Shown here: piece after piece, positions 2,831 through 54,662 of the stretch
Numbering within the stretch: position 1 is the stretch's first letter
Layout of the letters: every line of letters starts with the position of its first letter
Origin: Cyanophora paradoxa CCMP329
Lineage: Eukaryota; Plantae; Glaucophyta
NCBI GenBank assembly: GCA_004431415.1
Contig: QPMI01000478.1
Location: 62,001 to 126,000, forward strand
Length of the DNA stretch: 64,000 nucleotides
Direction: 5' to 3'
Notes under the pieces: model-generated
The model's input: only the letters and a program-made list of their open reading frames with translations
What the model was told of the DNA's origin: nothing
Database searches by the model: none
Position numbers and translations under genes: made by a program

Positions 2831-3188
2831 GAGGGCCATCAATGGGCCAAACGCGAAAAGTCAACTCCGAGAGCTCGAGACTCGGAAGTGACGCTTGGAT
2901 TGCGGAGGTTCTTATAACCGCCGCAACAGCTGTGGGGGTACCCCCTCCGAGGCTGGCGATCGCGGCGATCACGACCCTGGCGATCGCGATTTTCTCCCGA
3001 TCGCGACCCTTTTCGATCGCGATTTCGAGATCGGGGACATTAATGCGATCGCGAGAAAGGAAAAATCGGAAAAGGCCGAAAAGTGCCGTTTTCACGCGTG
3101 AAATCGATCGAAAACGAGGGTTCGAATCCCGGGCCCGGATTTGGACTTGGTCAGAATCTCGAGTCAAAATGGGAGAAAAATGTGACCT

Positions 3189-3247
3189 GGGACTTGGGAC
3201 TTGGGACTTGGGACTTGGGACTTGGGACTTGGGACTTGGGACTTGGG
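3189..3247 (+). repeat. (GGGACTT)8 tandem array, copy 1
   Basis: 8 perfect units followed by GGGAAGAGTTAGA. Confidence 0.95.
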
Positions 3248-3305
3248 AAGAGTTAGAATCAGAGTCTGGACTCAAAAGCGGGGAAATTTTCGGACGGGGA
3301 GAAAA

Positions 3306-3776
3306 ATGTCAGGCAATCTCTATTACGATTTCCCCTTTGAGTTGCATATGGCATTCGAGAGGCTGCGCGAGTTCTGGCGTTGGCACCTCACAGGACATGA
3401 CATTCCCGACATAACACCAGAGCCCAACACACAGGGCGTGCTTGAAGTCATCCGTCAATATCCGCGTCGATTCAATGAATGGATCGAGTTCCACGCAACG
3501 AACCGTTTCCAGAGTCTCCCCGAGGCCATACGCGAAAATTTCGTGAGGCTGGTGGGACCAGGCTACGACAACCCTAACAATCATAGACCACGCCCAGCTG
3601 GCGTGACGCGCGAAGCTCGAGAAGACCGTAGACTTTTCCGCAGGGAATTGAGAGAGGATAGACGGAGGCTTTCAATGGGGCTCCCGCAGATTGTGAGGGG
3701 GTACAGCCCGGATTACGAGACTTACCAAGAATTGTACGGCTTCGAAAATCCCCTTGAGAGGGTACTACCAGGGTGA
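3306..3776 (+). CDS. Viral hypothetical protein with weak F-box-like LPE motif
   Basis: ATG 3306 after AAATTTTCGG; FQSLPEAIRENFV resembles motifs in the ORFs at 52971 and 53714. Confidence 0.6.
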   Translation: MSGNLYYDFPFELHMAFERLREFWRWHLTGHDIPDITPEPNTQGVLEVIRQYPRRFNEWIEFHATNRFQSLPEAIRENFVRLVGPGYDNPNNHRPRPAGVTREAREDRRLFRRELREDRRRLSMGLPQIVRGYSPDYETYQELYGFENPLERVLPG

Positions 3777-4114
3777 GGGGCCAGGGGGCCCCCTGAGGGT
3801 GTACCCCCCATCCGAGACTCGACCTTCGGCGGACGCACTCGGGCAATTTCCGTCAGGCCGGCTCCTTTTTCTGTCTTCGGTCCAACGCTAAATTTGGCTT
3901 TTTTCAGGCCAGTTGGCAACGTTTTCCGTTGCGAACTAGCCCAGGAAAAAATTCGCCCACAAAACCGCGGTCCGCCGCCATTTTGCCTCACTCTTGAAAC
4001 GGGTTCGCCGCCTTCTCTCAGCCCAAGGAAACCCTGCCTCTCCGAATTTTCACAAGTCCGCTCTCTCAGTCACCTCACGTTTTGCCTTTGCTGAACTCTT
4101 TTCCCTTTGCGCAG

Positions 4115-5179
4115 ATGTCGACTCCCGCTGAGCTTGCCGAGGACCTCGCCACTGTCCAAGCGACGTGGGCTAACTCCCGCGTTGGGGCTACCCCTGAGAT
4201 GGATCAACGCGCCAAGGCTCTGGGGTACATGTACGACTACTACATCGACATACACGGCTACCCCCGCGTCAACCTTTGTCTCACGCCTGCCCACGCGGCC
4301 AAGCTCAAGCGAGCCAAGGCCAAGCAACCCAAGCCCGAGCCCCCCGTCGACGTGCCCCCCGTCCCCGGCTGGGTCAAGACTCCCACTGGCTGGGGCGACC
4401 CCAAGCTTTTCGCCGAGTCTGCCGCCGAGACGCTCGCCTGGGCCTATCCCCCTCAAGTCTTCACGAATTTCCCCCCTCCGTCATCGTCGTCATCTGCCCC
4501 TCAGCCCGTCGCCGAGCCCGCCCCCGAGCCCGCCGATGACGCCAAGTCCGAGGCCTCTGACGCCGAGTCTGACATCAACGACTTCATCGACTTTGACGTG
4601 CCGATTCCATACGACTCTGAGTCGTCTTCTGACTCTGAAGGCGACAACGAAAACCCGACTCGCAAGCGCCGCATTATCAAGACCAAGTCAATCGTCAAGA
4701 AGAAGTTCATGGAGACTACGTCATTCACCGACAACTCCGAGCGCGTCAAGGACCCCGCCAAGGAAAACGCCAAGGACTTGAAGCTCGGCGCTGGCATTGC
4801 CCGTTCTCGCGTGACGTCACACTACAGCGAGCGCCTGACTCAGCACGTCAAGACCATTGAGAAGCGCGTCCTCTGCAACGAGCTTCGCAAGGAGTTGGAG
4901 CGCAAGCGGCGCCACGAGCGGATTCGCCAGCGCGAGATGCACAAGGCCCGCGTCGCCGAGCGCAAGCAGAAGGAGGCAGCCGAGCTCAAGGCGCGCATCG
5001 AGGCTCAGCGGCAGCGCGAGGCAGAGGCGGCAGCGGCCTTGGCGGCGCAGCGCGAGCAGGAGCGGCAGGACTTAGTGCAGGCAGCGCAGGCCCTTCCCCG
5101 CATTCCCCTTAAGTCGGCGCCCGAGGCCCCGATTGACTTGGTTTCCGATGACGATGACTCTGACTTTGAGATGCTGTAA
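4115..5179 (+). CDS. Viral hypothetical protein (acidic and coiled-coil regions); probable 5'UTR intron 4056-4114
   Basis: Long GC3-rich ORF; ATG directly follows a GTCCGC...GCGCAG intron-like segment. Confidence 0.75.
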   Translation: MSTPAELAEDLATVQATWANSRVGATPEMDQRAKALGYMYDYYIDIHGYPRVNLCLTPAHAAKLKRAKAKQPKPEPPVDVPPVPGWVKTPTGWGDPKLFAESAAETLAWAYPPQVFTNFPPPSSSSSAPQPVAEPAPEPADDAKSEASDAESDINDFIDFDVPIPYDSESSSDSEGDNENPTRKRRIIKTKSIVKKKFMETTSFTDNSERVKDPAKENAKDLKLGAGIARSRVTSHYSERLTQHVKTIEKRVLCNELRKELERKRRHERIRQREMHKARVAERKQKEAAELKARIEAQRQREAEAAAALAAQREQERQDLVQAAQALPRIPLKSAPEAPIDLVSDDDDSDFEML

Positions 5180-5253
5180 ATAGTATTGCGTCATTCCATT
5201 GTACATACTTGTAAAAATTGGCCGACTATTCAGTTATGACTTGGCGCGATCCT

Positions 5254-5326
5254 GGGACTTGGGACTTGGGACTTGGGACTTGGGACTTGGGATTTGGGAC
5301 TTGGGACTTGGGACTTGGGACTTGGG
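5254..5326 (+). repeat. (GGGACTT)10 tandem array, copy 2 (one GGGATTT variant)
   Basis: Direct reading; downstream flank similar to copies 1 and 3. Confidence 0.95.
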
Positions 5327-5753
5327 AAGAGTTAGACTCAGGGTCTGGGCCCAGACTTTCTCTGGATCTGAGAGTTTGCTGCACCAAGTCCCTAACCACC
5401 GGGCAGACTTAGAAAGGGGTACGGAATTCTGGATACGACGTTTCTGGTGACATTCCAGGTGAGATTTCAAGCGAGGTAGAGTCTGAACTGTCGTACGACT
5501 TGTAGCATGATACTGGACATGAAAGCTCACGAGAGTATGCAACCGAAAAAGGATGTGAAGAGGGGTAGGAGTATTCGTGCGAGATGTCGAGAGAAGGAGG
5601 GTACGAGATGGGATACGAGTAAAAAAGACTACGAGTAAAAAAGAGTACGAGGGTTGGTAGGAGTAAAAAAGTCGGTAGAAAAACTCACCTGACTTGTCTG
5701 ACAAATTTCTGATCCTGGAGAAAGTCTGGGCCGGGACCTGGGTTTCAACTCTT

Positions 5754-5812
5754 CCCAAGTCCCAAGTCCCAAGTCCCAAGTCCCAAGTCCCAAGTCCCAA
5801 GTCCCAAGTCCC
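5754..5812 (-). repeat. (GGGACTT)8 tandem array, copy 3, inverted relative to copy 2
   Basis: (CCCAAGT)8 on +; flank 5708-5753 is an imperfect reverse complement of 5324-5372. Confidence 0.95.
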
Positions 5813-5836
5813 AGGTTTTTCTGAACCTAGGGCAAA

Positions 5837-6202
5837 ATGGCCCTGCTCCGGTGCACCGACTCGCAAGACGTCGCCTACAACGTCCTGGTCAACTCGGACG
5901 TACCCCCGAGTGCCTTGGAGTTTCCCTGGAGAGTGGACAGGGACAGGGTGAGCAAGACGTTTGGAGGGCGCAAGCACTACCTCTCCCAACTGATCCTCGG
6001 GAAGTCGCCACGTGGACGTTACGTGGAACACATCAACGGCAACCCGCTGGACTACAGGAGGGAGAACCTACGCTGGGCATCAATGTCGGAGATTCGCAAG
6101 AAGAGGAGGGGGTACGCCAATTTACAGGAGAAGAGCGAGGAAATTGCGGAGATGATGGAGGCGGCACAGGCGCTAATGCAGCTTAGCCAGTCTAGATGCT
6201 AG
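5837..6202 (+). CDS. HNH endonuclease-like protein (HNH_3 type)
   Basis: VEHINGNPLDYRRENLRW motif; upstream TTTTTCTGA. Confidence 0.8.
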   Translation: MALLRCTDSQDVAYNVLVNSDVPPSALEFPWRVDRDRVSKTFGGRKHYLSQLILGKSPRGRYVEHINGNPLDYRRENLRWASMSEIRKKRRGYANLQEKSEEIAEMMEAAQALMQLSQSRC

Positions 6203-6974
6203 TGGTGTGAATCTTAGTGTCGTACTCACGGTCGATCGTGCTCCAGGCTACGTAGTTTGTAGCCGTGCCGTTTGCAGGGTTGGTGGTGGCGGTGGTGTAG
6301 TCGGCCTCCGCTTCTATCAGCTCGGCCATGAGGGTAGAGCCCACGACCATTCCAGAGGTAGGCATACCCGCAATGTTGTTGTACAATTTGAAAGTGAATT
6401 TCGTGAAGAGAAGCCGGGGCCAGACCTGGGTACGGGGATTCGAGGAATCGTAGGAAAACGAGGTACCCGAGACTCCGCCCGTGGTGGCATTCGTCATCAT
6501 CTCCTTTGCGGTCATCTTCCAGAGGTTGTACATCTCAAAGGGGACGGCCTGTGTAGTTTTGCGCGTGCTATCGATGGCAGCACCGTCGATGTGAGTCTTG
6601 GAGCCGCCATTAAATGTGCGGGTGAGGGCGGTGTTCGCAGTGAACTTGAGCTCGAGCACGCGAATCGCGGGCCGATCGGGTACGGAGGGCTCTATCTTTT
6701 TAAGGAGGCCGGAAAGCCAGAGGGCCTCGGCCTCGTCCGCGCTCACGCCCGAGTCGATGTCAAAGTACACGTACACGGAGCAGGAGGCGGGATTCTCGAA
6801 GTCGTTGGAGGTGATGCGCAGCATGACTGGATTCTGGATTTTCACGGTCAGCATGGAGGCGTAGTTGCCGTCCCAGACCACGGAATCCGTCCCAGCGTTG
6901 GCCGCTACGGTGTCGCCGTAGAAATCGGGGGTAGGCAGCACGGTCTTCACGATGGTGGCCGAGGTGGTCGGCAT
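6192..6974 (-). CDS. Putative virion protein, paralog of 6998-7678
   Basis: Shared blocks QNPV, SGL(L/V)KK, LE(L/V)KF, PR..FT.F.F, L.AEL.E; ATG at 6974. Confidence 0.75.
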   Translation of the reverse strand: MPTTSATIVKTVLPTPDFYGDTVAANAGTDSVVWDGNYASMLTVKIQNPVMLRITSNDFENPASCSVYVYFDIDSGVSADEAEALWLSGLLKKIEPSVPDRPAIRVLELKFTANTALTRTFNGGSKTHIDGAAIDSTRKTTQAVPFEMYNLWKMTAKEMMTNATTGGVSGTSFSYDSSNPRTQVWPRLLFTKFTFKLYNNIAGMPTSGMVVGSTLMAELIEAEADYTTATTNPANGTATNYVAWSTIDREYDTKIHTTSI

Positions 6975-6997
6975 TTTGCGATCTCGAATGAGAAAGA

Positions 6998-7678
6998 TTA
7001 TCCGTAGAAGAGGGCGATGTCGTTGCCGATGCCCGAGATGCGGGCCGCGGGCTGCACGGCGTCGGAGCCGGTGGTGTGCCTGTAGGAAATCGAGCACTCG
7101 CGCAGCTCCGCGCAGAGGCTGGCGCCCGTGCTGAAATGGGGCTGGTCTGCGGCGTACGTGAGGGGGAAGACCTGGAACTTGAAGAAGGTGAAGGGAAAGC
7201 GGGGTAGCCCGGAAGCGCGCGGGTTGCCGCCCGTGTAGAGGGCCCCCAGGGTCGCGGGGCTCGGGTTGAACTTCGTGAAGAGCACGTCACCCTTGAGCGT
7301 ACCCCGCGCAGTAAACGCACCCGTACCCGGCAGGTCGGTACCCGTGTACTGGTTCACGGTGGGGCCGTACCCCGTCTCCCTGAACTTGACCTCGAGACAG
7401 CGCAGGACGTTGGCCGTGGCCGTGGCAGGCGCCACCTTTTTCACGAGGCCGGATTCGTGCAGCAGCTCGATTACCTCTGCGCTGAGGCTGGAAGGGTCGA
7501 AGAAGAGCTGATAGGAGTAAATCTTGGGCGTGGCGTAGGCGTTCTGAACGACCTGAATCACCACAGGATTTTGCAGAAAGACGTCGACGTAACTGCCGGA
7601 GGGGATTCGCGCGAAATCCTTGGTGTTGTTGCCAACGTCAAGTGAGCCGCTGAGGGTCTGGTACCAGTTGGAAGTCAT
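6998..7678 (-). CDS. Putative virion protein, paralog of 6192-6974
   Basis: Same conserved blocks; beta-rich composition. Confidence 0.75.
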   Translation of the reverse strand: MTSNWYQTLSGSLDVGNNTKDFARIPSGSYVDVFLQNPVVIQVVQNAYATPKIYSYQLFFDPSSLSAEVIELLHESGLVKKVAPATATANVLRCLEVKFRETGYGPTVNQYTGTDLPGTGAFTARGTLKGDVLFTKFNPSPATLGALYTGGNPRASGLPRFPFTFFKFQVFPLTYAADQPHFSTGASLCAELRECSISYRHTTGSDAVQPAARISGIGNDIALFYG

Positions 7679-7717
7679 TTACCCCGGCGCAGATATTTTT
7701 TCGGATCGTAGAGGAAA

Positions 7718-9649
7718 ATGCCCCGCTTCGTATTCGTGAAGAAACAGGTGGTGCAGGCCCCACAGTACGGCGTGGAGCCAATTTCGCTGACTGTGGGCAG
7801 GCCCCAGATCCGATCGGGCGCTGTGCTTGACAATGGAGGCGGCACATATGGGTTTCGATTGAACTGGAACGCGGTCACTGACGCAGTCAAGTACAAGGTT
7901 TACAGAGGGACAAACGTTGACGGGCCGTGGACACTGGTGACCACGGTGAACGCACCCACGGGCACGTACACTGACTCGCCCTTTAACTTGGGCGATGTCC
8001 GAATCTACCGAGTGGCGGCCGTGCGCGAGCAGAGCGGCAGCAGCACCGGCTCGGATGGTAAAGCCCCGCCTACCACCTACGCGCAAACCCTTCTCTACAC
8101 GCACGAGGGCGCCATGAGCAATTACATTTTCTTCCAAGGCATCCGGCCCTTTACTCCCCCAGTCGAAGCCTACACCACGCTCACGACCGCCGCGGCCCAG
8201 ACCTACGGCGATTTTATCGCAGGGGGCGGCCCTGCGTCTGCGGGCTTCCCGAAGCCCACCTTTGTTGTCACAATCAACTGGGTGGCCATGGAGGGCGCGG
8301 ACTCGATTCGCATTTACAGAGATGGTACCCCCATCGGATTCGCGAGCAGCGGACTATCTACCTCGTACATTGACGATAGCACTGCCCTCGCATGGGGTAC
8401 GGAATACTCCTACCAGGTGGCCGGCATCGTGGGCGGGGTCGAATACGAAAAGTCCGATCCACTCCCGGTCTGGACGATGCCGAACGCACCCACGAACGTG
8501 ACGGCGACCGCACCCAACGATCAGCAGCAGCCCGTCAGCCTCAACTGGAGTGCTTCCACGGGAGCAACGGGGTACAAGATTTACAGAGACGGGGCCTACC
8601 TCGCAGACTCCGCGACCAACTCATACAGCGACGCGACCACGGTCTGGGGTACGGGGTACGAGTACCAGGTCTCCGCGACGAACTCGGGAGGGGAGGGGCC
8701 GAAGAGCGTGACCATCAGCGTCACCACAGATCCGGCGGCACCGGCCTCAATCTCCACTTCACAGCCCTCGTCGGATACTCCCAGCGTTGCCATCACCTGG
8801 ACACCCCCTGCAATTGGCGCGGCCACCTCCTACAACGTCTACAGAGGGGGCATGGAAATTGGACACAATGTTACGAGCCCATACACGGACACCACTGCGG
8901 CGTCGTTTGTGGTTAACACATACTACGTTAAGGCTGTCAATATTGTGGGCGAGGAGGGCCCGACATCGAACTCATCGGCTATCACTCCCACGTCCGCCTC
9001 AGCCCCGCCGGTGGCATCGGGGCTGGTTTTGATGCTGGACGCTTCGGATGCCACGACATTTACATTGTCAAGTTCCAATGTCGTCCAATGGCGGGACAAG
9101 AGCCCCAATGGCAACCATTTCGGTCAAGTGGCTGGTCACGGGCCCCCTACGCGCACCCTTACTCGCAACGGGCGCTCTGTTGTTTCCTTCGATGGTACCC
9201 AGCTGCTGGTCCCGACAGCTGACGTTGGGCCATTTAACACCTCTGGTGGGACGTTCATCGTGGTAACAAAACCTACGGGCCCAAATGGGGGTGCGTATAA
9301 GACCCTGTATGATTCCTCCACAGCCGTTCCAATGCTGTGGTACCGCCCTGATACCAGACTCGAGCTCGATACCAGCACGACGGCTATCTCATCGACCTCA
9401 TTCCTGAACACATGGCTGTATTCTTTCCACTCGGTGGGCAGCACGAGCGCCTGGTATTTGCAAGGCACTTACCGATCTGCCTCTGCCGTCCCTTCAAATA
9501 CAAGAATGACATTCTGGCACCGTGGCTATGATATCAATACTCGTTACGTAGGCGATATGGCTGAGCTGCTCATCTACGATCGACCACTTACATCATCGGA
9601 GCGTGACCTAATCTTTAGCTACATTCGATACAAATGGGGGTTCTCGTAA
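7718..9649 (+). CDS. Fibronectin type III repeat protein with C-terminal LamG/concanavalin-like domain (candidate attachment protein)
   Basis: About four FN3-like repeats (W...A..YKIYR...YTD...Y.Y.V.A.N..GE), then LVLMLDASD...VVQWRDKSPNGNH...GDMAELLIYDRPLT. Confidence 0.85.
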   Translation: MPRFVFVKKQVVQAPQYGVEPISLTVGRPQIRSGAVLDNGGGTYGFRLNWNAVTDAVKYKVYRGTNVDGPWTLVTTVNAPTGTYTDSPFNLGDVRIYRVAAVREQSGSSTGSDGKAPPTTYAQTLLYTHEGAMSNYIFFQGIRPFTPPVEAYTTLTTAAAQTYGDFIAGGGPASAGFPKPTFVVTINWVAMEGADSIRIYRDGTPIGFASSGLSTSYIDDSTALAWGTEYSYQVAGIVGGVEYEKSDPLPVWTMPNAPTNVTATAPNDQQQPVSLNWSASTGATGYKIYRDGAYLADSATNSYSDATTVWGTGYEYQVSATNSGGEGPKSVTISVTTDPAAPASISTSQPSSDTPSVAITWTPPAIGAATSYNVYRGGMEIGHNVTSPYTDTTAASFVVNTYYVKAVNIVGEEGPTSNSSAITPTSASAPPVASGLVLMLDASDATTFTLSSSNVVQWRDKSPNGNHFGQVAGHGPPTRTLTRNGRSVVSFDGTQLLVPTADVGPFNTSGGTFIVVTKPTGPNGGAYKTLYDSSTAVPMLWYRPDTRLELDTSTTAISSTSFLNTWLYSFHSVGSTSAWYLQGTYRSASAVPSNTRMTFWHRGYDINTRYVGDMAELLIYDRPLTSSERDLIFSYIRYKWGFS

Positions 9650-9652
9650 TCG

Positions 9653-10466
9653 TTACGCAGGATTGACGAGCTCCCCTGTGAAGCAGCTGTAGTTTCCGCC
9701 GTGCAAGGAGCCCAGTCTCAGGTGCAAGGATACTTGTGTTCCTTGTGTAAGGTACACGATAGTGTTAAAGGTTAGCGGTTTGTACACTTGTGGGAAATCT
9801 GGATCTCCATCCGAGGTAGCTGTGGCCACGACAGAAGTACCCATCACAAGATCCACGAATGTTCGAACAGAAGGCGAGTTATCGGTAATCCCCACGTAAG
9901 TAAACCGGTAATATCCAGTGATAGGGCACGTAAAGTCACCGGTGGAGGGGTTCCACGAGGCCGACGCAGCATTGTTTACCCAGTTTGTGATTTTCATTCC
10001 TGTACTCGTGTTCAGTGGACCCGGAAGCACAGCACAGAAGAAGGGTTTTTGGATGTGGTGTAGGTATCCACCCTGAATGACCACATTTCCGTTCACTCTT
10101 AACCCACCAACAACATTTGCACCCCCTCCCTGCACGTACAGTGCTGCGTTGCCTTCCCCGTCAGCGCCACCATTGAATGTAAGAGCGTTTGTAGTGTGCC
10201 CGCTCCCGTCCCACGCCCCGTTCGTGACGGTGAGCCTCTGCGTCCTCACGCGCCCCGGCACGGCCGACCCGCCCTCCCGCGTGCGCATCTTGTCGCAGCG
10301 CAGCTCGCCGACGCGGACGAGGTCGGCCTCGGAGAAGGGGACGGCCGTGGCGTTGTAGGGGGTCTCGGTGGCCTGGTTGCCGAGGGTTGTCTCTTTGATC
10401 GTGTGATCCGCCTTGTGATTCACGCTGGCAGCGTAGGTGAAGAGCTGCGCAAAAGAGTCAGGCCAT
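9653..10466 (-). CDS. C1q/TNF-like domain protein (candidate fiber head); start codon apparently 1 nt out of frame
   Basis: WNPSTGDFTCPITGYYRFT...LTQGTQVSL...FTGELV C1q signature; ATG at 10466 is one base off the ORF frame. Confidence 0.75.
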
Positions 10467-10543
10467 GTCAAAAACAGAAATAGAAAAGGATGGGGTACGC
10501 ACCGGAACAGCAACCGACATTTTCTAAGCCCTTAGAAAAAGCG

Positions 10544-11035
10544 ATGGATCACATTGCAATCCCCATTTGCGGCCCTCGAAATGTGGGGAAGTTCATGTTA
10601 GTCGACAGTGGAGACCTACCATTGGTTGCCCAGAAGAAGTGGTATCTCAGTACCCATGGGTACCCAGTAGCTTACATCTGGCACTCTCATTCGAAATGTT
10701 CAACCGTTTTCGCTCATCGCATCATCGCGGGCGCTTCTGGTCGGCACGTCTCGGTGGATCACAAAAACCACAACCTGCTTGACAATCGGAAGGGTAACCT
10801 CCGCCTGTGTACACATGCCGAGAATCTCCGCAATGTCAAGGTGCGTAATCAAGCATCGAAGACCTCAAAGTACAAAGGTGTGGGCTTCAACAAGCAAAAG
10901 CAACGTTGGCGGGCACGGGTGCGGCTTAATGGCAAGGAGCACACTGCCCATTTTGACACTGAAGAGGAGGCTAGGCAGTGGTACGATAGGAAGTGCGTAG
11001 AGCTGTTTGGTGAATTTGCATACCCAAATCCTTGA
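10544..11035 (+). CDS. HNH-AP2 homing endonuclease
   Basis: VDHKNHNLLDNRKGNLR (HNH) plus SKYKGV...RWRARV...FDTEEEA...FGEFA (AP2). Confidence 0.92.
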   Translation: MDHIAIPICGPRNVGKFMLVDSGDLPLVAQKKWYLSTHGYPVAYIWHSHSKCSTVFAHRIIAGASGRHVSVDHKNHNLLDNRKGNLRLCTHAENLRNVKVRNQASKTSKYKGVGFNKQKQRWRARVRLNGKEHTAHFDTEEEARQWYDRKCVELFGEFAYPNP

Positions 11036-11040
11036 AAGCA

Positions 11041-14000
11041 TTACACCAGCAGTTGGTCTTCCAGTCGTGGCCCCGCTGCAATCCACTGCACCTCAAAAAT
11101 CCACGGGTTGCCCGAGAGGGTCACCCCGCCACGGCACTTAAGTTTTAGCACCCATCCAAACCCTTTGACAATGCTGTAGGTAATGTTACCGTTGCTGTCC
11201 AAGCCATAGGGAACGTCAACCGCTTCCAGTATAGCAACATCAAAGTAGCTGCCAAATCCGTTCTTCGACTTGAACGAGAGTGAGATGGAAGGGTCGTTCA
11301 TGTACTCTATCGAGAACGTCTCTGACCCCGACGCTGTCACAATTTCCCCGTCTGTGTATTCCCTGTTTGCAAGAATACGTGAAGTTTTCCCTGTCTGAAC
11401 GTACGCCTGTTCGTTCACCCTCCGCTTCGAGGCATATGCATCGTCGTGATCGTGACCGGTCGTTGAATACTGGCTGTGACTGTGGGTGAAGGGGGCGTAC
11501 GTCCCCTCGTGATCGTGCCCTGCTGTCGCGTACACCCCTTCATGATTGTGCGTTGAGAGGGCGTACCCCGATACATCGGGTGCCCCTGCCCAGTCCCTGA
11601 TCTCAGAGATCGAGTGTGTGTGCCCCCTGCCGCTCAGATCCGCAAAGGCGCCAGTGTACGCAACCGTTGCCAGGCGGGGCTGCACGACGCCCACAGTGCT
11701 GACGGGCTGACTCACTGTGTACTCGAGCTCGGCTGCGTTTCGGGTTGCCTGCGTCGGCTTACCTGTGATGCTCTCCCACGCCCACGTCGTTGGTACCGTC
11801 GGTATCGTTGGCTTTCCTTTCAGGTCTTCGTATGCGCCCGTGTGCGCCACCGTCGCTAGTTGAGGCCCGATTACGCCAACGGTGCTGATAGCCTGGCTCG
11901 CCCCCGGCGCCATGTGCCACTCGTAGTTCTGCGACGCAAACACGGGCTGGTCGGCCGAGGGCGCCCAGTACTCGATGCCTTTGGTGATCTTTTTGGTGTA
12001 AGGGGCTGCAGGCCTGTCAACCAATTTATCGACGTAGGCCTTGGGTACCAGCCAGTTTGCCTTGGGGCTCTGCGAATTGATCCCGTTGTCTATGAAGGCC
12101 CCGTAATTCCTGAAGGCCTCGGCCTCCCACCAATCCTGCATGCGGAAGGTACCGGGAATCTCGAGGCGCGAGTTGGCGTCCGCCAGGCGGGCCACCTGCG
12201 CCCCTCCGTTCGACGAGACGCCCGAGTGACGGATGGCCGAGCCGAATTCGCGCCTTAGGGCGTCGATGTGGTTGATTCTGTTGAGGCCCTCCTGGTAGAC
12301 CGCAATTAATACGCGCTTCCTGTTCTTGGCCTCCGCCGTCATCATTTCCTTTAGATCCAGCATCACCTGCTTTAGGCCAATGTTCAGGGCCAGTAGCCCA
12401 TCCTGCATTGTTTCCGTGAGCTGCGACAGGTATAGCACCGTTGCACGATCAATTTCGAGCAGAGTCTTCTGGTCCTTGGGGGTACGGTAATCGTTGATTG
12501 CGTTGTCGAGTGCGTGGATGAACTTCTGCAGGCTTTCGGGCTGCTTCTGGTTTCCAGCGTCCATCTTCAGCGTTTCGATCTCCATGATGAGTTTCAGCGC
12601 CCCGTTGTCGCCGCCCCTTCCGGTAAAAACGCCCATGGGGTTGTCGCCTAGCTCGCCCTCAATTCGCCGAATCCGCATCCTCAGTTGCTCGGCCTCGGAG
12701 CCGAAGGTCTCAATGCCCCACTCGACCATGTCCTGCGCGATCTTGCCGATGAACTGAATCGTATCGGCTGCCCAGTTGATGGGTACATAAAAAAGTTCTT
12801 GATGATGGTACCCACATCCCTCTTGTTCAGGATGTCCACGAAGACGCCGGCGATCATTCCTGCGAGGATCGACAGGCCCATGCCACCCACGAACCCAATC
12901 TTCATGCCAGGTCTCAGGAACTGAAGGCCGGACGTGAGCCCCTGCTGAAGGCCAAACGAGCCCACGGTCATGATCATGCTGTCGCGGAAGTTGTCCATGA
13001 ACTGCGCTTGCGTGATCTGTCCGCTCTCCAGGGCTTGGTAGGACGAGAGTAGCCCGCCCAGTGCCGTCAGCCCAAGGCCGGCCGCCCCCGCCCCCAGTCG
13101 TCTGCCGGCCCTTGAGCCCGTACCCCCAAGCCCGGCGCCCACCAGGTCGATACCCGCCCCCTGGAAGAGGTCGGCCACACCAAAGGGCATGCCATCGTTG
13201 TTGGTCGTACCTGCCGCGGAGAAGAGGGTCTCGGCGCTGAAGGCCTCCTTGGCCACGCCGGGTCGCCTGGCCCTCGGGCGCCCCAGGAAGGCGTCGCGCT
13301 GCTCTTTGGTGGTGAATCGCTCGAGGTCGAAATCCGCGAGGGCGTCGGCGGTGGCGCGGTTCCAGTCGCCGTAGGGCATGAGGGCGTTGCGCAGGATGGT
13401 GTCGGAGTCGCCCATCACGCGCCTGTCGAGCGTCTGAAATACGCCCTCGGAGGGCAGGCGGGCGGTGCCCGGGCGCATTTCCTCCACGGAAACGTCGTCC
13501 CTCTCCGCGAGTGTGATGTCGTCTGGGCTGGCCAAGCCGACGCCCGCGCCCTCATCGGCGTACGCCCTTCCCCTTCGTTTTAATATTTGATTGGCCTCCC
13601 GCTTCAAGGCTTGGTACTCTGTTTCTACCTTTGTTTTTCTCGCCTCCTCCTCTGCCGCCTTGCGCTCTGCGATCTTCCTCCTCTGCTCTTCTATCTCGGC
13701 GTTGCGTCTCGCCGCGTTCTCCTTCGCCTGCTGCTTCCGCTCTTCAATCACCCTGTTTGCGTACTCCTTGTCCGCTTGGGCCTTTCTGTAGCGCTCCTCG
13801 ATCTGACTCTTGGCCTCGTCTCCTCTCTTCCTTAGTTCGCCTATGAACGCCGTTGTATCTATGTAAAGCTTGTATTTGGCGGTGGATGCTCACGTTTAAA
13901 GGCCTCCAGATCGCGCACCATGGCGTCGTACTGTGCAAGCCCCTCCGCTGGAATGACGGCTCTTCGCTTTTCCCAAAACTTGCTCAGCTTCTCCACGTAA

Positions 14001-46700: not shown

Positions 46701-48948
46701 GAGACGGGCGTGGCGACGGGCGTGCCCCGCGGCGGCGAGGGGATGGGGAGGGCGAGGGGGTACCCTGGACGGAGGGCGGCGGGCGCTGCGAGCGCTGCGA
46801 GCGCTGCGACGGCGGGACGGGGCTGAAGGCCGAGGGGTTGCCGCTCGGGCGCCAGGAGACGTCGGAGGCGGCGGGGCTGGCGGGGGGCACGGGGGCGGGC
46901 GGGCGGCGGGGGGAGACGAGGGGCGGCCTGGGGCCAGCGTCGCCGGGCTCGTCGTCCGAGAACTCCTCCACGGGCGGCGGCGGGGCGTACTCGAGGGAGG
47001 GGGAGGGCGGGAGGGGGTAGAACTCGTCGACGGGGGGCTCGGGCTCGAAGGTGTCCCCCGCCGCCGCCGCCGCCAGCTCGGCGTCGGCCTCGCCCTCGCG
47101 CTCGCGCTCGCGCTCCAGCTCCATCGCGTACTCCTCCGCCACCTCCAGCTCGCGCGCCGCCTTCGCGTCCGCCGCCGCCGCCAGCGCGGCCTCCTCCTCC
47201 ATCTCGCGCTCGGCCTCCAGCTCCTCCTCTGTGGGCAGGGTCATTCCTTTGCGGCGCCGGAACGCCCTAGGCTCAGAATTTTGGGGTGGGGAGGGCGCAC
47301 CGGCCGGCTCGGGGCCGGCCGCCTTGGGGGCCGCCGCCTCCATCTGCTCGCCGAGATCGCGCCGCGCCGCCGGGGCGGGCGCGTCCTCCTTCTCGAACTT
47401 GAGGTTGATGTAGGCGACCTTGCCCTTGCCCTTGCCCTTCGCCTGGGCCTGGGCCTGGGCCACGCGCATGGCGCGCGCGAGGCCCTCCGCCGTGATCTTG
47501 CTAACTCCGGCCCCGTCGCCGGAGGCGGAGGCCGTCGCCTCGCCGATCGCCGCCTGGAAGGCCGCGGCCATCGCCCGGCCGGCGCGCGGCAGGCTCCGCG
47601 CCCGCTCGAGCTCCTCCTCCGTGAAGTCCAGCGCCCGGGCCGCGGCGGCGGCCTCGGCGTCGCGCTCCTCCTCGGAATCCGAGCCGGAATCCGAGGACTC
47701 CGTGGCCGCGAGCATGGGGCGGGGGCGGGAGGCGGCGGCGGCGGCGGCGGCCGCCGCCTTGTCGAAGACGGGGACGAAGAAGGCGAGGGCGAGGGTGCGC
47801 CGCGGCACCACGTACTTGACGGCGCCGTGGATCATGGGGCGCCCGTACGAGTCCGGCATCGAGCACCGCCGGATGACCTGCGAGGGGGTTTAAATGGCAT
47901 CTAAATAGTCTAAATAGCATCTAAATAGCATCCAAATAGAAACGGCGCACCTGCACGCGGTCGCCGATGGTGACGCCGGGCACCTCGAACTCCGGAACCA
48001 GGTCGAAGGCGCAGATGCCCTGGCGCCCGTGGCGGTCCCGGCACGTCCGGCAGGCCGCCTCCAGCACGATGCGGATGGCGTAGGCGTCGGTGAGGACGCC
48101 GGTGTCCGGCCGCTCGCCCAGACCGCCGAGCTCTCGTGGCGCGTGATGAAGTCGCGGCTGTTCTTCTTGATGCAGCGCACCTCGATGCCCATGATGCCCT
48201 TCGCCAGCATCTGCGGGCCGGCGGGGGTCGGCGGGGAGGGGCGGTCGCGGCTGCACGGGCGGCTGGGGCGCACCTCGGGCTTGTAGGCCGGGTCCGAGCT
48301 GAGCACCAGCAGCCAGAGCAGGTGCCCGGCCGCCTCCGCCATGCGGTTGAAGTAGAACTCCTCCGGGCCCGTCAGCAGGCCAATCGTGCGCCACTCGCCC
48401 TTGGCGATGTGCCGGGGCACGGCGCCCATGAGCAGCCGCAGGCGCTGCGCCGCGAACAGCCGGCGGGCGTCGGCATCGCGCCCGGGCTTCGGCTTGCTCG
48501 GCGTGTCGAAGTTCTCCTCCGTCATGTTCAGCGCCGCGTGCATCGCCCGCACGTCCGCGTCCTGCGATGCGCCGCGGCGCCTCAGCCGCTGCGAGCGCAG
48601 AGAGAAAGAGGCAGCGAGCACCTCCGCGAGCCGCAGCCGCGACAGGACGGAGTCGATGGAGAACTGCACCGACGGGCCGGGGGCACCCTCGGCGTTCAAA
48701 GTCTGCGCCGCGGCCAGCTTGCGCTTGCGCTCGGCCAGCTCGGTCTTGCGCAGCACATCCTTGCTGTTCGGGCTGAACTGCATGCCGTCCTCCAGCGCCC
48801 GGGCCTGCGCCTCCTTTGCCTGGTCGCTGATGCCGGCCTCGAAAACCGTCCAATCGATGCCGAAGCTGTCGCCGATGCAGAGAACGTCGTACAGCGTGTT
48901 CCTCGCCAGCTTAGCCGGGATCTCCGGAGGGAGCGCGAGCCGAGACAT
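43709..48948 (-). CDS. Multi-exon gene for a large replication protein with a superfamily 3 (D5-like) helicase domain
   Basis: Splicing 45375-45429 restores Walker A GQSGTGKS; Walker B MVMAE, ELKMRSGD, motif C VIVCN, RVVLIP; about 9 short GT-AG introns; continuity of the 5' half is inferred. Confidence 0.75.
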
Positions 48949-49246
48949 GCTGCCGCCGCTGCTGCTGCTGCCGCCGCTGCTGCGAGTGCTGCGCGCGGGC
49001 TGCGAAGGCTTTGGCGCCAAGTTTCCAGCTGGTTTGAACGAGCGGCTTGCATTGCATCGCCAGAGAGAAAAAGCGAGAAACCGACGGGGGGTTGCAGCCT
49101 GGGGGGGTACGCGACGCGGACGGGGGGAGAAGCGCGCTTCAAGTCTGAGTCTTCGCGAATTAGGGGGGGGGGCAAGCCAGTGCGGGGTACGACCCGTGAA
49201 CGGAATCCGTTGGAGGTGTTGCACTTCACTGGCAGTAACAACCACC

Positions 49247-52022
49247 ATGCAGGCGGCGACCTTCCGCTCCTGCGCGAAGCAGCAGCAGCCCGGCGAGCAG
49301 GACAGCATAGCCCGCGATCTCGGCAGCCTATCGGCGGAGGAGGCGCTCAACGCGATGACCTACGATAGCGTGTTCAACTCGGCCGGCGTGCCGCGCTTCG
49401 AGCCGTTCGGCGGGCTGAAGAAGATCCAGAACACGGACGGCCACCCGAAGCACTTGAAGACCAAGGGCCAGTTCACGCCGGTTAATAAGTTCAACGAGGT
49501 TCGCGGTTTCGCCCGCACCGCTTCGGCCCCGGCTCACATGCCCCGGCTCGCGTGCCCCGCGCGCAGATCGTGCCTCACAGCATTCACGAGCTGCCGGAGT
49601 ATGTGAAGGCGAAGTACGGCTTCACGCACGGCGATGTGGCGCTGTTGCTGATGTCCGACAATGCGGCGGCGGGCTGCTTCAACAGCATCGCGCTCCATCG
49701 CGATTTCCATCCGCGCGCGATCTTCTCCGGCACTCCGGAGCAGAAGGAGTTCCTCGCGGACCTCAAATCCGGCAGCGGCGGCGCCCACGGGGTGAGGGCC
49801 CTTCCTGCGCTCGCGTGCCCGCGCTTGCTCACGCCCGGGCCGCCGCAGCTCTTGATCGCGCGGGATCAGTGCCTGGCGTCGGTGACGGAGAAGGAGAAGG
49901 CCAGCCCGTCCGGCCTCGGCGTTCGGTGCGATTACGTCATCGTCACCAAGCGCATCAACCCGACGTACGCCAAGAAGTACGACCTCAACTTCGTCTACGT
50001 GAAGGAGGGGCCGCCGGCCTCGCAGTACACCGTCACCGTCCAGGCCGGCATCTGCGCCGGCGAGACCACCAACGGCGCGTACCACGGCGTCGGCACGCTC
50101 CCGTCCGGCGGCTTCTTCGACGTCGTTGATCACATGTTCCTCTCCTGCGCCGATGACATTTACGTGCGCGAGAGCCCGCCCTTTCCCTTTCCCCTGCCCT
50201 GCGCGCGCTAAGGTCGCGTCCGCAGGTCGGAGAGAACCCGAGCGCGGAGAGCCCGCTGGGCTACGCGTACTGGCTGGTCAGCGTGCAGAAGGTGCTCTCC
50301 TGCGCGGCCCTTCGGAAGTACGCCAGCGTCTGCGACTCCGGCATGCGGCCCCAGCTCCAGCTTCTCGTGGATCAGGGCCGGAGCGACGAGACCCGCCAGC
50401 GCCACCGCGATCTCGCGCGGGCGGCCGTGCTGAAGCTGGAGGAGGTTCTGCGCGAGGGCCACCCAAACGGGCCGGCCCGCGCCCGTGAGATCCTCTCGGC
50501 GGCCATCTCCGTGATCGTCGGCGAGCTCTCGCACACGGTCCGCCGCCGCCCCGCTTAGCCCGCCTCTCCTCCCTGACCCGGGCCCTCGGAGCGCAGGAGG
50601 AGTCGGACGTTCTCACGGCGCGGGCGGACGAGTTCCAGCGCCAGGCGGAGAAGATCAAGTGCTGGTACGAGAAGGTGAAGAAGGCGGAGGAGACGGACCT
50701 GCGCGACTGGGGCAGCAAGAGCGGCGACGCCGAATTCGACCGCGACAAGCTCAAGCGCGTCTTCTACTGGATGCGCATCTGCGCCAAGCTGGAGGCGCTG
50801 ATGGACGAGTGGCACATCGAGGGCGTCCGTCTGGCGAAGGCGATGATCGCCATGGAGTGGGGCCACGGCCACCCGGCGCGCAAGGAGTGCAGCATGCTGG
50901 CCAAGGAGATCGGCCGCCGGGGCCGCTACATCAAGGAGGTGGCCTACGGCATCGAATGTGCGTCCGCCCGCCCTTGGCCTGCGCCCCGCCCTTGGCCTGC
51001 GCCCCGCGCTCTCCCCGCTCACCCCCTCTCCCGCAGTTACCATCCCGCTCGTCCAATTCTTCCAGCGCGAGTTTGTGCTGATCCAGGCCTCCATCATCAA
51101 GATCGGGTCGCTCTCCGCCAAGGAGGTGGACGAGGCAAGGGACGAGGGCCAGGCGGAGGCGGAGGCGCGCTGGGACGATGCGGCGTTCAGCGCCGTCTGG
51201 GGCGTCGGGGACAACGCGCTCTCGCCCCCCGCCCCGTTCGGCTTCAGCGGGCGGCCCGCGCTGGCGTTCGACGAGCACGGCCTCCCCGAGCTGGCGGACT
51301 GGGACGTCGAGGCGCCGGTGCCCGCGCCCTTCCCCCTTCCTCTCCTCCTCGGCCCCTCTCACCGCCTCCTCCAGCCCCCGGCGTCCTCGGCTCCGGCGTC
51401 CTTGGCTCCGGCGTCCTCGGCCCGGCCCTCTGCCCACCTACGGAGAGAGGTGTGCCCACCGCGCCGATTGCGCCCTCAACGGCTCCCACCTCCTGCCCGC
51501 CAAGAAGGCCCGCCTCGGCCTCTTCTCACCCCACCCTCTCAGCCCGGTGAGTGACTCTGAATCGGAGGGCTCGGAGGCCTATAGCACGCCCCGCGACCCC
51601 GACGCCCCGCCCCACAAGGCCGGCGCCTTCGGCTTCTGTAAGTGACGCCCCCACGCAGGCCCTGCCGACGCCGCCCGTCGCCAACCGCGAGCCCCTCGTC
51701 CAGGTGAGTGCCCGGGCTGCCGCGAGTGGCGGCTCGAGAACTTCTCGGCTCAGGTCCCGCCACGCAGCAGGCCCGCGCGATCCCGGCCTCGCCGCCCGTC
51801 GTCCCCGCCGCCGTCGCCGTGGAGGGCGGCGTCTTCGACATGGAGCTGGAGCCGGCACCCTCGCAGGCCTCGCTCGCCTCGGCGCGCTCGGCGGCCCTCG
51901 CCACGCAGGGCTCGGCCGCCCCGGGCTCGCCGCCGCCGTCGCAGGCCTCGGCCGTCGCCAACTCGCCGTACGATGACATGCCGCCGGTACTCAGCCCCGA
52001 GGACGACTTCCCGGGCCACTGA
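49247..52022 (+). CDS. Multi-exon viral gene of unknown function, divergent from the helicase gene; 3' exons uncertain
   Basis: GT-AG introns at ~49499-49566, 49792-49848, 50164-50225, 50538-50596, 50958-51036 join coding-like blocks. Confidence 0.65.
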
Positions 52023-52263
52023 ACGACACTGAGACGGTGAGCGCAGGCCCGCCCCGCCCTCCGGCCCCTCTCCGAGCAAATGGTCCACAACGCCATAGTG
52101 GACGCCATGTGGGATAACAGGGGCCGCCTCCCCCACCCCTTCCGCTACGTCTCTATGGCCCTCCGCGGCCTCGCCTTCCCGCCCCCCTGCACCGAGCAGC
52201 TCAACCAAATCCTGCGCGGTCTGATTCATTACAGACTCGCCTATCCGGCCTGGGCCTGAGCCG

Positions 52264-52920
52264 CTACATCAGCGCGTACGTCTTGAATTCCCTAAGCGCT
52301 AGCTGCTCCTCGCTGAGGTTCTCTGACTTCATTCGATCGCTGTAGGGCTCGGGCGGAGTCCCCGCCTTTACGTGCATCCAAAATAGCTGTAAGCACTTCC
52401 TCATGAGCTCGATGTACCTCTCGTCGCGCCTGACGTACCACGTTTGCACGCGCAGAGGAGTGAAGCAAAAAAGTTCGGCCCACTCGCGGCCCGTTATGTC
52501 CAGCAGGCCCTGGAGCTGGGGCATGTAATAAGTTGGGACCTTTTCGTACAGTTCGCCCTTGTACGGGCATTTCACCTCTAAAATTCTATCATTTCCTATA
52601 AGTCCGTCGGGACTACCGGCGAGGAACGGCATTTCTTTATGTTCGTGCAGTCCAGTATGTTTAATGTCAACGTTATCGTTCAGTGCCTTGTAGATAGAGA
52701 CCGCGAGGGGCTCATAGTCATGCCCGTAGGTTAGGGCAGGGTTGTCAAAGTTGTTTTCCTCCGCTATGCCGCTTAGCTCCGCCCAGAGGCGGGCCCTGGA
52801 TTTCCAGGGATTTATACCACACGCAGCCGCAAAATTAGATGCAGTTAGTTTTTCACGGCGCGCCGCGTGCCACGCCGCGCTCCCCTGTTGCAAAGTCTCG
52901 CAATCTGTATCGGTATGCAT
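52264..52920 (-). CDS. YqaJ/lambda-exonuclease family PD-(D/E)xK nuclease
   Basis: QGSAAWHAARREKLTAS, GHDYEP, AGSPDG, LEVKCP, YMPQLQ. Confidence 0.93.
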   Translation of the reverse strand: MHTDTDCETLQQGSAAWHAARREKLTASNFAAACGINPWKSRARLWAELSGIAEENNFDNPALTYGHDYEPLAVSIYKALNDNVDIKHTGLHEHKEMPFLAGSPDGLIGNDRILEVKCPYKGELYEKVPTYYMPQLQGLLDITGREWAELFCFTPLRVQTWYVRRDERYIELMRKCLQLFWMHVKAGTPPEPYSDRMKSENLSEEQLALREFKTYALM

Positions 52921-52970
52921 AGCTTAGCCTCGCAGTAGCGTTTAGAATTTCTTGATGTGTGCAATTGCAA

Positions 52971-53675
52971 ATGCCCGATGACGAAGATTCGGACCCGGTC
53001 GTGCATATGGACGAAGATTCGAGCCCCGAAGAGTTCCTGACTCGTGTAAGGGGCTTGGCACATTGGATCCGAGATAAATTCAAGGAGGGGATGCGAAATC
53101 AGATAGGAATGTCGTCCTTCCCGCTAAGGGGGCTAGCCCCTGTTGCATCCCAGGGGCTGCGGGATACCGTGAGGCTCGCCCCCCCATCCTATGATCGGAA
53201 CTGGGACTTCAGCAGTGTGCTTACGTCCCTGTACGTGGCGCTGATGTCGCCTAGAAGCCGCGTGGCGCGTCTGCCGAACGAGGCCAGGTTGAAGATCATG
53301 AACTTCTTACTCGCAGGTAGAGACGGGCGCGAAGGCGATGTGATCAATGGGCTTCGAAATGAGATACAGTGGTACATGCGTACAGGCGAAGGCGGTGTCC
53401 GGCAGTACGACGGCTCACGGTACACGGAGCTCGAGATTCCACGCGAGCTCGTACCCCGGAGCTGGCAAGAGCTTCCGCCCGCCCCACCCCCGCCCCCCGC
53501 CTACGTATCCCCCTTCGACTCGAGGCCCCCCGTCAACGAGCGCAAGCGGCTGCGCGACTGGCTGCAGGACGATCGAAACCGTCTGCCGGGCGAGCCAAAG
53601 GTCGGCACTATACCCCCAGAGGAGGAGGCGTACCCCGTTTTCGAGAATAATCGCTTGACGTGGAGATGGACGTGA
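52971..53675 (+). CDS. Viral hypothetical protein, paralog of 53714-54567
   Basis: EEFLTRV...WIRDKF and RLPNEARLKIMNFL shared with the next ORF. Confidence 0.7.
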   Translation: MPDDEDSDPVVHMDEDSSPEEFLTRVRGLAHWIRDKFKEGMRNQIGMSSFPLRGLAPVASQGLRDTVRLAPPSYDRNWDFSSVLTSLYVALMSPRSRVARLPNEARLKIMNFLLAGRDGREGDVINGLRNEIQWYMRTGEGGVRQYDGSRYTELEIPRELVPRSWQELPPAPPPPPAYVSPFDSRPPVNERKRLRDWLQDDRNRLPGEPKVGTIPPEEEAYPVFENNRLTWRWT

Positions 53676-53713
53676 TTGGGGGTACAGATAGATATTCTCA
53701 GTGAGCCGCAAGC

Positions 53714-54567
53714 ATGGCGCGAACACGCGAGTCCGACGTGCTGTACAACAACGGCGACCTGGACGGGGAGATTCGTCAGCGGAACGTGGACTTGGAGGAT
53801 GCGAACGCAGTGCTGGAGGGGAGGCGCACGTCCTCAGGGGGCGGCTCGCCGGCGGAGAACTTCATGGAGCGCGTGCTGTACCTGGTGCGCTGGATTAGAG
53901 ACGAATTCCACGACGAGCGGGAGCTCCCGGACAGGGAGATGATCAGGGCCGCGGGCTTGATGGGTATGACAGAGAACCCGAGATCGTACCTGAGGCGCGA
54001 ACGCAGGGATCTGAACGGCGATTGGGCGGACCTACAAGCGCTGTGGACGGCCTTTGCGAACCGCAAGAGCCAGATCCTTGCCCTGCCCGCGCAGGTACAG
54101 CAGCGTATCATTGATTTCGTAGCCCCTGGCGCGACGAGTCCCTCCAGCAGCCATTCATGCAACCACGCTTCCTCTCCGGGCTCAGGAGCGCGTTCTTCCA
54201 CTTGGCCGTGAGCAGCGACCGGTATTTCACACCGCAGAGGATCGTTCACGGCGAATTTGGCATACCCCCCGAGTGGCTGAATTTTGCCACCGTACCCCTT
54301 CCCCACCCCGCCTCGAAGGCCCCCCTCCCTACCCCGAGCAGCGTGACTCACTCAAGCGTCAGAGGGAGGTACGTGAATGGATGGACGACACCAGCCACTG
54401 GGTACAGGGCGAGGCCGAATTACGCAAGTTCGGAAGGTTCGGGCAGTAACAGCAGGGGGTACAGCATTCAGTTAGCGCGCGAGAGGGTTAGAGGCTGGGA
54501 GGCCTGGGGGGGGGGTACGTCAGACGTGTTAGTCCCCTGCCTCCCTGAATGCAATATAACAATGTAA
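53714..54567 (+). CDS. Viral hypothetical protein, paralog of 52971-53675 (frameshift near 54140)
   Basis: ENFMERV...WIRDEF and ALPAQVQQRIIDFV; continues in ORF 54157-54567. Confidence 0.65.
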
Positions 54568-54662
54568 CCTCCGTGACGCGTGACTCATCGAACCTCCGAG
54601 GGTTAACAATGCATTGACAGCGAAAGGGCAAGCTCGAGAGCTCGACCTTTGGCAAGAGCCCA

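Follow-up and report, generated by a model that had tools for sequence, protein, structure and literature searches.

A multi-copy gamadvirus-like mriyavirus in the Cyanophora paradoxa genome with shared TATATAT junctions and predicted introns

Introduction

How does a viral genome with no recognised integrase come to lie at the same short motif at independent places in an algal genome? The question is raised by a 64,000-nt stretch of the glaucophyte Cyanophora paradoxa CCMP329 (contig QPMI01000478.1, positions 62,001 to 126,000; hereafter the window), which holds an integrated gamadvirus-like mriyavirus genome. An annotation made from the letters alone (the sequence-only reading) had proposed a mriyavirus provirus here; it noted neither that the element is one of a multi-copy family with several capsid types nor its TATATAT junctions, introns and nested retrotransposon, which are described below.

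Among small viruses, mriyaviruses have been proposed to be the nearest kin of the giant-virus ancestor, with HUH-driven replication as a prediction (mriyavirus preprint; here and below, papers are cited for the parts of their text that were available), and they are described as having no integration genes (10.64898/2026.06.19.733378). The available text of the paper describing the gamadviruses (PMC11253617) contains none of 'integrat', 'endogen' or 'intron'. Mriyaviricetes regions embedded in a Glaucocystophyceae assembly have already been reported (bioRxiv 10.1101/2025.04.19.649669), with integrase-less regions interpreted as accidental, and methylated viral insertions (GEVEs, or giant endogenous viral elements) have been reported in C. 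paradoxa (PMC12344493). Since these are in print, calling the lineage undescribed was an overstatement. Both reports very probably concern the insertion family treated here, in the same species, and their available text (figures and supplements outside our scope) says nothing of ends or a target motif, nor of a copy family, introns or capsid types. Nor did we find this family's ends, target motif, introns or capsid types described elsewhere in the literature covered, which left out figures, bioRxiv supplements and most subscription journals.

Results

The element is integrated with the same ends at independent sites

Four sequencing runs (X1, X2, X3 and X5) were examined as assembled contigs, which are consensus sequences that drop rare variants, and depths are given relative to the flank. 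The element and its boundaries are as follows.

2831..54664, no strand: integrated gamadvirus-like mriyavirus genome (depth steps and contig ends at both junctions, gene content, lengths)
2824..2830, no strand: left TATATAT junction motif, common to independent insertions (unrelated-flank contigs joining at 2819-2824)
54665..54673, no strand: right junction TATATATAT (sequence; single-copy contig start at 54642 in X1 and X3)
2831..2885, plus strand: left terminal 55 nt, a degenerate direct repeat of the right subterminal copy
54598..54652, plus strand: right subterminal copy, pairing with the left terminal 55 nt
37537..43402, minus strand: nested DIRS/PAT-type retrotransposon (Pfam gag knuckle, reverse transcriptase/RNase H and tyrosine recombinase; split direct repeats)

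The flanks are single-copy in all four runs. On the left, a single-copy contig from the flank reaches 2852-2853 in every run, with a depth jump at 2820-2837; on the right, a single-copy contig starts at 54642 (X1, X3), 54635 (X2) or 54656 (X5). These junction contigs contain 9-30 element bases, fewer than the 31-letter bridging rule asks for; such short overlaps are normal for contigs that run up against a repeat. They speak for real junctions, for which long-read confirmation is still required. The element is a real integration and not a chimeric assembly, a worry that the sequence-only reading had raised and that flank contigs running into both ends dismiss. The right end, first placed at 54662, is corrected to 54664. 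The element spans 51,834 bp, and the ~46 kb first quoted for it applies only after the 5,865-bp retrotransposon is subtracted (45,969 bp). As the sequence-only reading held, the element identifies its host, which is C. paradoxa: members of its ATPase cluster come from the proteome of that alga.

Independent insertions share the left end. Among the matches listed, 8, 4, 7 and 6 unrelated long-flank contigs in X1, X2, X3 and X5, respectively, meet it at 2819-2824, one per run being an end-only relic, so that independent flanks meet the same end at TATATAT in all four runs. The contig start at 54642, with 31-letter words, means that in X1 and X3 the right end too is common to other copies through TATATAT. 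The motif occurs nowhere inside the 51.8-kb element, stands at both junctions and is found six more times in 12 kb of flank; on the right the TA run extends into host sequence. Since fixed ends recur at a fixed motif across unrelated flanks, integration was quite probably programmed rather than accidental.

The ends carry no terminal inverted repeat among the 25 longest of 91 inverted pairs, and an end scan gave a direct repeat only, 36 of 55 positions being identical ungapped (30/55 at the next best position in the window). The left-junction pattern had no match in metagenome contigs.

One end-only relic elsewhere in the genome consists of 54 nt from the left end, with 6 differences, between two directly adjoining copies of TATATAT; it is the match of window positions 2824-2884 on a ~8-kb single-copy contig in X1, X2, X3 and X5. 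A second relic piece stops at 2876 and is followed by ATATATA (X1, X5). The relics could be aborted insertions or excision footprints.

The family has many young copies

The sequence-only reading asked for further copies in the host, and these were found. In the C. paradoxa proteome, 18 entries belong to the ATPase cluster, and named ATPase models lie on 21 different contigs; there are 24 helicase models, and 23 models in the MCP (major capsid protein) clusters. Inside the element, single contigs have ~18-22 times the flank depth in the helicase and 32-47 times elsewhere, with one at 25 times. We estimate a few dozen copies in the genome, an estimate only because depth is not a copy number and free copies are indistinguishable from integrated ones. 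Summed bin depth was rejected as a copy number, and single contigs were used instead as a rough guide.

The copies are young, with ATPases 97-99% identical and 16 of the 23 MCP models full length. The full-length MCPs form three capsid types that are 59-68% identical. On six contigs that carry both genes (paired by gene numbers), the ATPases are the same 97-99% identical and the MCPs cover all three types, which points to exchange of capsid genes between co-resident or infecting genomes.

Copies also differ outside the capsid. At 45587-46300 and 54476-54565, this copy departs at many sites from the deepest contigs, and there is a second helicase type among the copies (75% identical in the motor exon). 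Hence, the copies are mosaic beyond the capsid.

The element is a gamadvirus-like mriyavirus on its own branch

The genes that bear on classification, with homologue counts from a comparison set of 81 loci, are the following.

18262..20306, minus strand: long HUH endonuclease (18690-20306 holds motifs I-II; after a break near 18700, YxxK motif III follows in the next frame)
20330..21172, minus strand: short HUH endonuclease whose motifs I, II (HAH) and III (YxxK) share one frame (alignment; gamadvirus locus L010 matched by phmmer at 9e-13)
21393..22223, plus strand: VLTF3 late transcription factor (Pfam 9e-25; homologues in 80/81 loci)
22213..22557, minus strand: conserved 114-aa protein between ATPase and VLTF3 (77/81 loci)
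22964..24034, minus strand: A32-type packaging ATPase (Pfam 1e-4, just below cut-off; 48% identical to the PEV2 ATPase, AUD57306; trees)
24293..24769, plus strand: RuvC/A22 resolvase (Pfam Pox_A22 1.4e-7; 31/81 loci)
26556..28535, plus strand: conserved gamadvirus gene upstream of the MCP, likely Mriya_1 by position (60/81 loci; order as in Table 1 of PMC11253617)
28576..30018, plus strand: double-jelly-roll MCP of the 481-aa type (in the assembly its frame breaks three times, near 28822, 29081 and 29270)
30109..32414, plus strand: three-gene block common to gamadviruses (374 aa, 109 aa, DUF5767), likely Mriya_51, PEV_20 and Mriya_48 by position
32469..33251, minus strand: homologue of the gene preceding the ATPase in gamadviruses (PEV_26, single-stranded DNA-binding protein (SSB), by position; 75/81 loci)
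43709..48948, minus strand: ~1500-aa superfamily 3 (SF3) helicase gene with at least six GTGCGC..GCAG introns (Atlas primase-helicase/DUF5906 0.94-0.96; host gene models)
52264..52920, minus strand: YqaJ/PD-(D/E)XK nuclease (Pfam 1.8e-28; 69/81 loci)

Pfam, alignments, profiles and Atlas thus recovered the MCP, ATPase, VLTF3, RuvC, adjacent short and long HUH proteins, SF3 helicase and YqaJ nuclease that the sequence-only reading had named. The SSB stands in part: it is a homologue of the gamadvirus gene at the SSB position, which adjoins the ATPase in 67 of 75 loci, and PDB and Pfam searches gave no support for an SSB fold.

The MCP of this copy is split into four frame pieces that share 94-100% identity with an intact 481-aa paralogue, and Capsid_N is above the Pfam cut-off in three of four intact paralogues. 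A profile of the Cyanophora MCP paralogues matches a profile built from 20 gamadvirus MCPs (hhalign 97.5%, E 6e-12), which in turn matches capsids of nucleocytoplasmic large DNA viruses (NCLDVs) in PDB; matched to PDB directly, the Cyanophora profile gave weak hits only (E 0.11 and 0.71). The two HUH proteins are 28% identical (E 4e-9) and both align to gamadvirus HUHs; the first Atlas match of the short one, a rolling-circle Rep (0.93), has a low recognition value and is a weak extra lead. PDB profile searches of the ATPase, SSB candidate and HUH found no match, and AlphaFold models of the short HUH and MCP (mean predicted local distance difference test score 33) gave no usable fold.

The 81 loci stem from 85 ATPase matches, 81 of them at least 60% identical to the ATPase of Pleurochrysis sp. 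endemic virus 2 (PEV2), so that most of the loci are gamadvirus-type. Homologues of the 374-aa gene, MCP and DUF5767 gene occur in 50, 39 and 38 loci, and those of HUH in 6/81, HUH lying at the edge of the retrieved flanks. Neighbours are conserved: ATPase with the 114-aa gene in 72/77, the 114-aa gene with VLTF3 in 77/77, Mriya_1 with MCP in 30/36 and the 374-aa gene with DUF5767 in 38/38.

In all three ATPase trees, the Cyanophora type and two relatives (79-88% identical) form a sister branch to the PEV2 clade and do not nest inside it. Support is moderate (FastTree 0.995, 156 of 186 rows; IQ-TREE SH-aLRT 82, 54 rows, and 91/77, 35 rows), with outgroups that are mostly sequences without a taxon name. 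The relatives, P0002 (ENA; 88%) and P0007 (Logan; 79%), are possibly free or other-host members of the same lineage. Separately, a 620-kb record with an A32 ATPase that the phage collection lists under a tailed-phage genus (BTJB01000001.1) is probably a mislabelled giant virus.

Of the features that define the Mriyaviricetes, the following were found: a double-jelly-roll MCP, A32 ATPase, VLTF3, RuvC and PD-(D/E)XK nuclease, HUH motifs I-III and a helicase without a polymerase, in 45,969 bp, at the upper edge of the ~35-45 kb genome size given for the class. The adjacent short and long HUH (HUH_long) are the duplicated pair that marks the Gamadviridae. Family searches (66 open reading frames (ORFs); 141 of 317 frames of at least 75 aa; 29 proteins against PHROGs) matched no DNA or RNA polymerase, PolB included, which bears out the claim that the element has no RNA polymerase among the ORFs scanned. 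They likewise matched no integrase or transposase besides the tyrosine recombinase of the retrotransposon.

Like the Gamadviridae (PEV2 and relatives), the element carries the gene of the SSB position and the ~1500-aa helicase besides the genes just named, and keeps the blocks ATPase-114aa-VLTF3, Mriya_1-MCP and 374aa-DUF5767. Unlike them, it sits on its own long branch, has an MCP only ~25% alike, rearranges the blocks, has introns in its helicase and is integrated in many copies at TATATAT. VLTF2 and the gene at the gamadvirus minor-capsid position were not detected: Pfam gave no VLTF2 match, and the conserved gamadvirus Cys-rich family, for which there was no named VLTF2 reference, matched the window no better than E 6.8. 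Several conserved gamadvirus ORFs, including a 440-517 aa gene after VLTF3, have no window match, and several others, as well as the SSB-position family, are present.

The element is almost certainly a mriyavirus, and by gene content and trees we file it as a gamadvirus-like mriyavirus on its own branch, not as a member of the Gamadviridae. That it instead belongs to a related group of polinton-like viruses (PLVs) or is a fragment of a large NCLDV is highly improbable. The Zora, VC134 and VC218 PLV groups likewise carry HUH and Mriya48 (10.64898/2026.06.19.733378), and the IQ-TREE support and nameless outgroups leave the PEV2 link at moderate strength; yet VLTF3, RuvC, the duplicated HUH, the 46-kb size and the three gamadvirus gene blocks are all present, and, in the ORFs scanned, neither an rve or recombinase as in those PLVs nor a PolB or RNA polymerase was matched. 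The earlier choice of a mriyavirus over a polinton, PLV or virophage holds: those groups are marked by terminal inverted repeats, an rve integrase or tyrosine recombinase and pPolB, none of which was found among the inverted pairs and ORFs scanned apart from the recombinase of the retrotransposon.

Which enzyme would integrate the genome?

Two HNH proteins complete the recognised DNA-cutting enzymes of the element, beside the two HUH proteins, RuvC and YqaJ.

5837..6202, plus strand: HNH endonuclease (Pfam HNH_3 1.8e-7)
10490..11035, plus strand: HNH-AP2 endonuclease (Pfam HNH_3, AP2)

The gag, reverse transcriptase and recombinase genes of the retrotransposon, with its split direct repeats, are arranged as in PAT-type DIRS elements, and contigs bypass the insert at the joint 37536-43402 in three of four runs, two nearby joints behaving likewise. 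Its tyrosine recombinase (38008-38592) was rejected as a viral integrase because it sits in an insert that is missing from other copies.

To our knowledge, of the HUH, RuvC, YqaJ and HNH enzymes, only the HUH proteins are known to join cut DNA again in a sequence-specific way. Strand transfer by HUH enzymes is known from adeno-associated virus (AAV) Rep, the TrwC relaxase, IS91 and Helitrons, where an HUH nuclease, with or without a helicase, joins DNA at a sequence-specific site. None of these is a 46-kb capsid-encoding double-stranded DNA virus, and the likeness would be functional.

By this analogy, the HUH endonuclease is the most plausible, still tentative, candidate for the integration catalyst. 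We infer a circular form of the genome. HUH would nick the TATATAT core on this predicted circle and then join it to a host TATATAT site; exchange between the two would leave the motif on both sides, and RuvC or host repair would finish the exchange. Integrated copies would be silenced by methylation.

Several points weigh against this proposal or against programmed integration at large. With 141 of the 317 frames scanned, an intron-split or novel recombinase could escape. IS91/Helitron-type transposition leaves no duplication, and 7 nt repeated on the two sides would also be compatible with a target duplication or the core of a recombinase. No circle junction appeared among the loose contig ends listed (consensus contigs only), and no empty site was seen. 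The long HUH of this copy is broken as assembled, and the unique right-hand contig of X2, starting at 54635, shows no sharing of the right TATATAT. Folding of the two ends and of the hypothetical circle junction is unremarkable (z -2.0, -1.1 and -0.7), the junction folding no better than shuffles (z -0.67).

Programmed integration by another enzyme is a possible but rather unlikely alternative, with TATATAT as a core or target duplication. The enzyme would be either an unrecognised recombinase encoded by an orphan ORF, or a tyrosine recombinase or transposase that host DIRS elements or PLVs provide in trans. Tyrosine recombination typically leaves a core on both sides, and 7-23 bp repeats lie beside recombinase-encoding PLVs (PMC12220804); this genome holds a multi-copy DIRS family with an intact-looking recombinase, many ORFs of the element are without annotation, and the degenerate 55-nt end repeats could be binding arms. 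Against it, the scanned ORFs of the element gave no recombinase family match besides that of the retrotransposon, and it has no inverted ends for a DDE enzyme, and the DIRS insert is missing from other copies.

The remaining explanations dispense with a dedicated enzyme. End joining normally frays ends, yet the contigs join within 2819-2824 and the TA run extends into host sequence on the right, and dozens of young copies would demand a high rate; we therefore consider it unlikely that host break repair at AT-rich fragile sites repeatedly caught linear genomes with fixed ends, possibly bearing TATATAT. Such capture is how integrase-less Nucleocytoviricota regions were interpreted in print (10.1101/2025.04.19.649669); genome ends that are fixed would by themselves yield shared termini, and a 54-nt end-only relic exists. 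Less probable by far is that host segmental duplication multiplied a single old insertion, or that a viral contig was mis-assembled. The near-identical ATPases, the frame breaks of this copy and the short element portions of the junction contigs speak for it; the flanks, however, are single-copy, and it is exactly at the terminus that they diverge between copies, the family has three capsid types and two helicase types, and both junctions lie on single-copy contigs in all four runs.

The helicase module contains predicted spliceosomal-type introns

Walker A of the helicase was found in host gene models, and the gene contains six clean GTGCGC..GCAG segments of 53-73 nt each, several of which coincide with gaps or frame changes relative to host gene models of other contigs. 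We predict from the sequence that they are spliceosomal-type introns. Two of them lie within contigs at 14-18 times the flank depth, and introns of the neighbouring gene lie within contigs at 32-35 times; hence, the introns belong to the multi-copy family. Other features of this region are given here.

45375..45429, minus strand: 55-nt intron splitting Walker A (missing from contigs at ~20 times depth)
49247..52020, plus strand: divergently transcribed intron-containing gene(s) (frames and GT..AG candidates; no family match)
33754..35212, no strand: four ~60-90 nt repeats, two direct and two inverted (repeat listing; gene-poor stretch)

A joint skipping the 55 nt of the Walker A intron is present in all four runs and fits, with zero mismatch, an insertion that borrowed the AG of the exon. 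This favours a recent gain; loss with one silent change is possible. Retro-processed copies were rejected as the source of the intron-less Walker A, as an X1 contig retains 15 nt of the next intron. The repeats at 33754-35212 are a possible replication origin or a small inserted or mobile repeat.

We infer nuclear replication, because the element has no polymerase and its introns would need the spliceosome. A T-rich motif lies at most 45 nt upstream of 20 of 37 starts (3.6% background), and a looser pattern, chosen post hoc, precedes 31/37 (12.8%), both intron-bearing genes being among the six misses. The intron module has 71% GC and the structural part 61%. The programme may have two parts, an intron-bearing helicase module read like a host gene and intron-free genes behind the T-rich upstream motif.

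State of this copy and other genes

The sequence-only reading called the provirus complete and full-length. As to completeness, this is true of its length and ends only; as assembled, the MCP and long HUH frames of this copy are broken. All three MCP breaks lie in short homopolymer runs. In the contig-compared region, which does not include the MCP, single-base differences involving C make up 10 of the 12 indels listed (the best 12 of 56), several at full depth. This pattern is consistent with long-read error; real decay of this copy is possible.

Two genes have likely roles in fibres or attachment.

7718..9649, plus strand: FN3-repeat protein, likely fibre or attachment (Pfam fn3 4e-6)
9653..10525, minus strand: C1q-domain protein, likely fibre head (Pfam C1q 2e-8)

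Three overlapping long ORFs at 11041-16380, with a weak tail-fibre match (E 9e-5), may be one very large structural or fibre protein read via an intron and frame breaks. Beta-rich orphan ORFs at 16406-17362 and 6192-7678 have no family match; by eye, 16913-17362 resembles a single-jelly-roll minor capsid protein.

Host flanks

The flanks had been described as intron-rich host DNA. Their single-copy state is confirmed; the intron-rich gene is seen by eye only, and none of five flank ORFs has a Pfam match. Exon-like segments lie on the minus strand of both flanks (1-2823 and 54674-58419); the start at 58419 resembles a signal peptide, and each flank has a similar G[KR]TYY motif. By eye, this suggests one long host surface-protein gene, with the virus inside one of its introns or at an intron's end.

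The first ORFs of the element are surrounded by GGGACTT tandem arrays (3181-3254, 5251-5362 and 5718-5816; two of them direct, one inverted), and near 61990 the right flank has similar GGGA(C/G)TC arrays. Also in the right flank, at 59050-60650, repeated CGGCAATT units and nested inverted repeats with 103-nt arms (95%) are likely a host non-autonomous transposon.

Discussion

Endogenous mriyavirus regions in a glaucophyte were already known; what is new is evidence that integration in a mriyavirus family is programmed, integrase-less and motif-specific, and that the family has introns. The NDDV Phaglo-G of Phaeocystis (bioRxiv 10.1101/2022.07.28.501842) is likewise an integrated gamadvirus-type element of high GC; it differs in its haptophyte host and is described only as flanked by short tandem repeats, its origin being unclear there. 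Spliceosomal introns in a nuclear or latent virus, and a split between intron-bearing genes and viral-promoter genes, are shared with the Chlamydomonas punuivirus GEVE (bioRxiv 10.64898/2026.10.09.758095) and with mirusviruses rich in introns (PMC12768974). These are much larger and unrelated; a further difference is that expression and virions are shown for the punuivirus.

Introns common to dispersed copies support nuclear replication, and gene callers that assume intron-free genes miss the helicase module. Thousands of bases per copy are listed in the C. paradoxa proteome as apparent host genes.

Taken to its full extent, the picture would be of a temperate, nucleus-replicating relative of giant viruses that uses HUH as a TATATAT-specific integrase, with ongoing gain or loss of introns in its replication module, capsid swapping among co-resident proviruses and particles still made in a cultured glaucophyte. 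We regard this whole as doubtful; if true, it would be the first tractable mriyavirus provirus system, with an integration route not described for varidnaviruses in the literature examined. With both ends and motif fixed, and in an alga that is axenic and sequenced, questions of replication and integration become testable: the circle, the nick site and the integrating enzyme.

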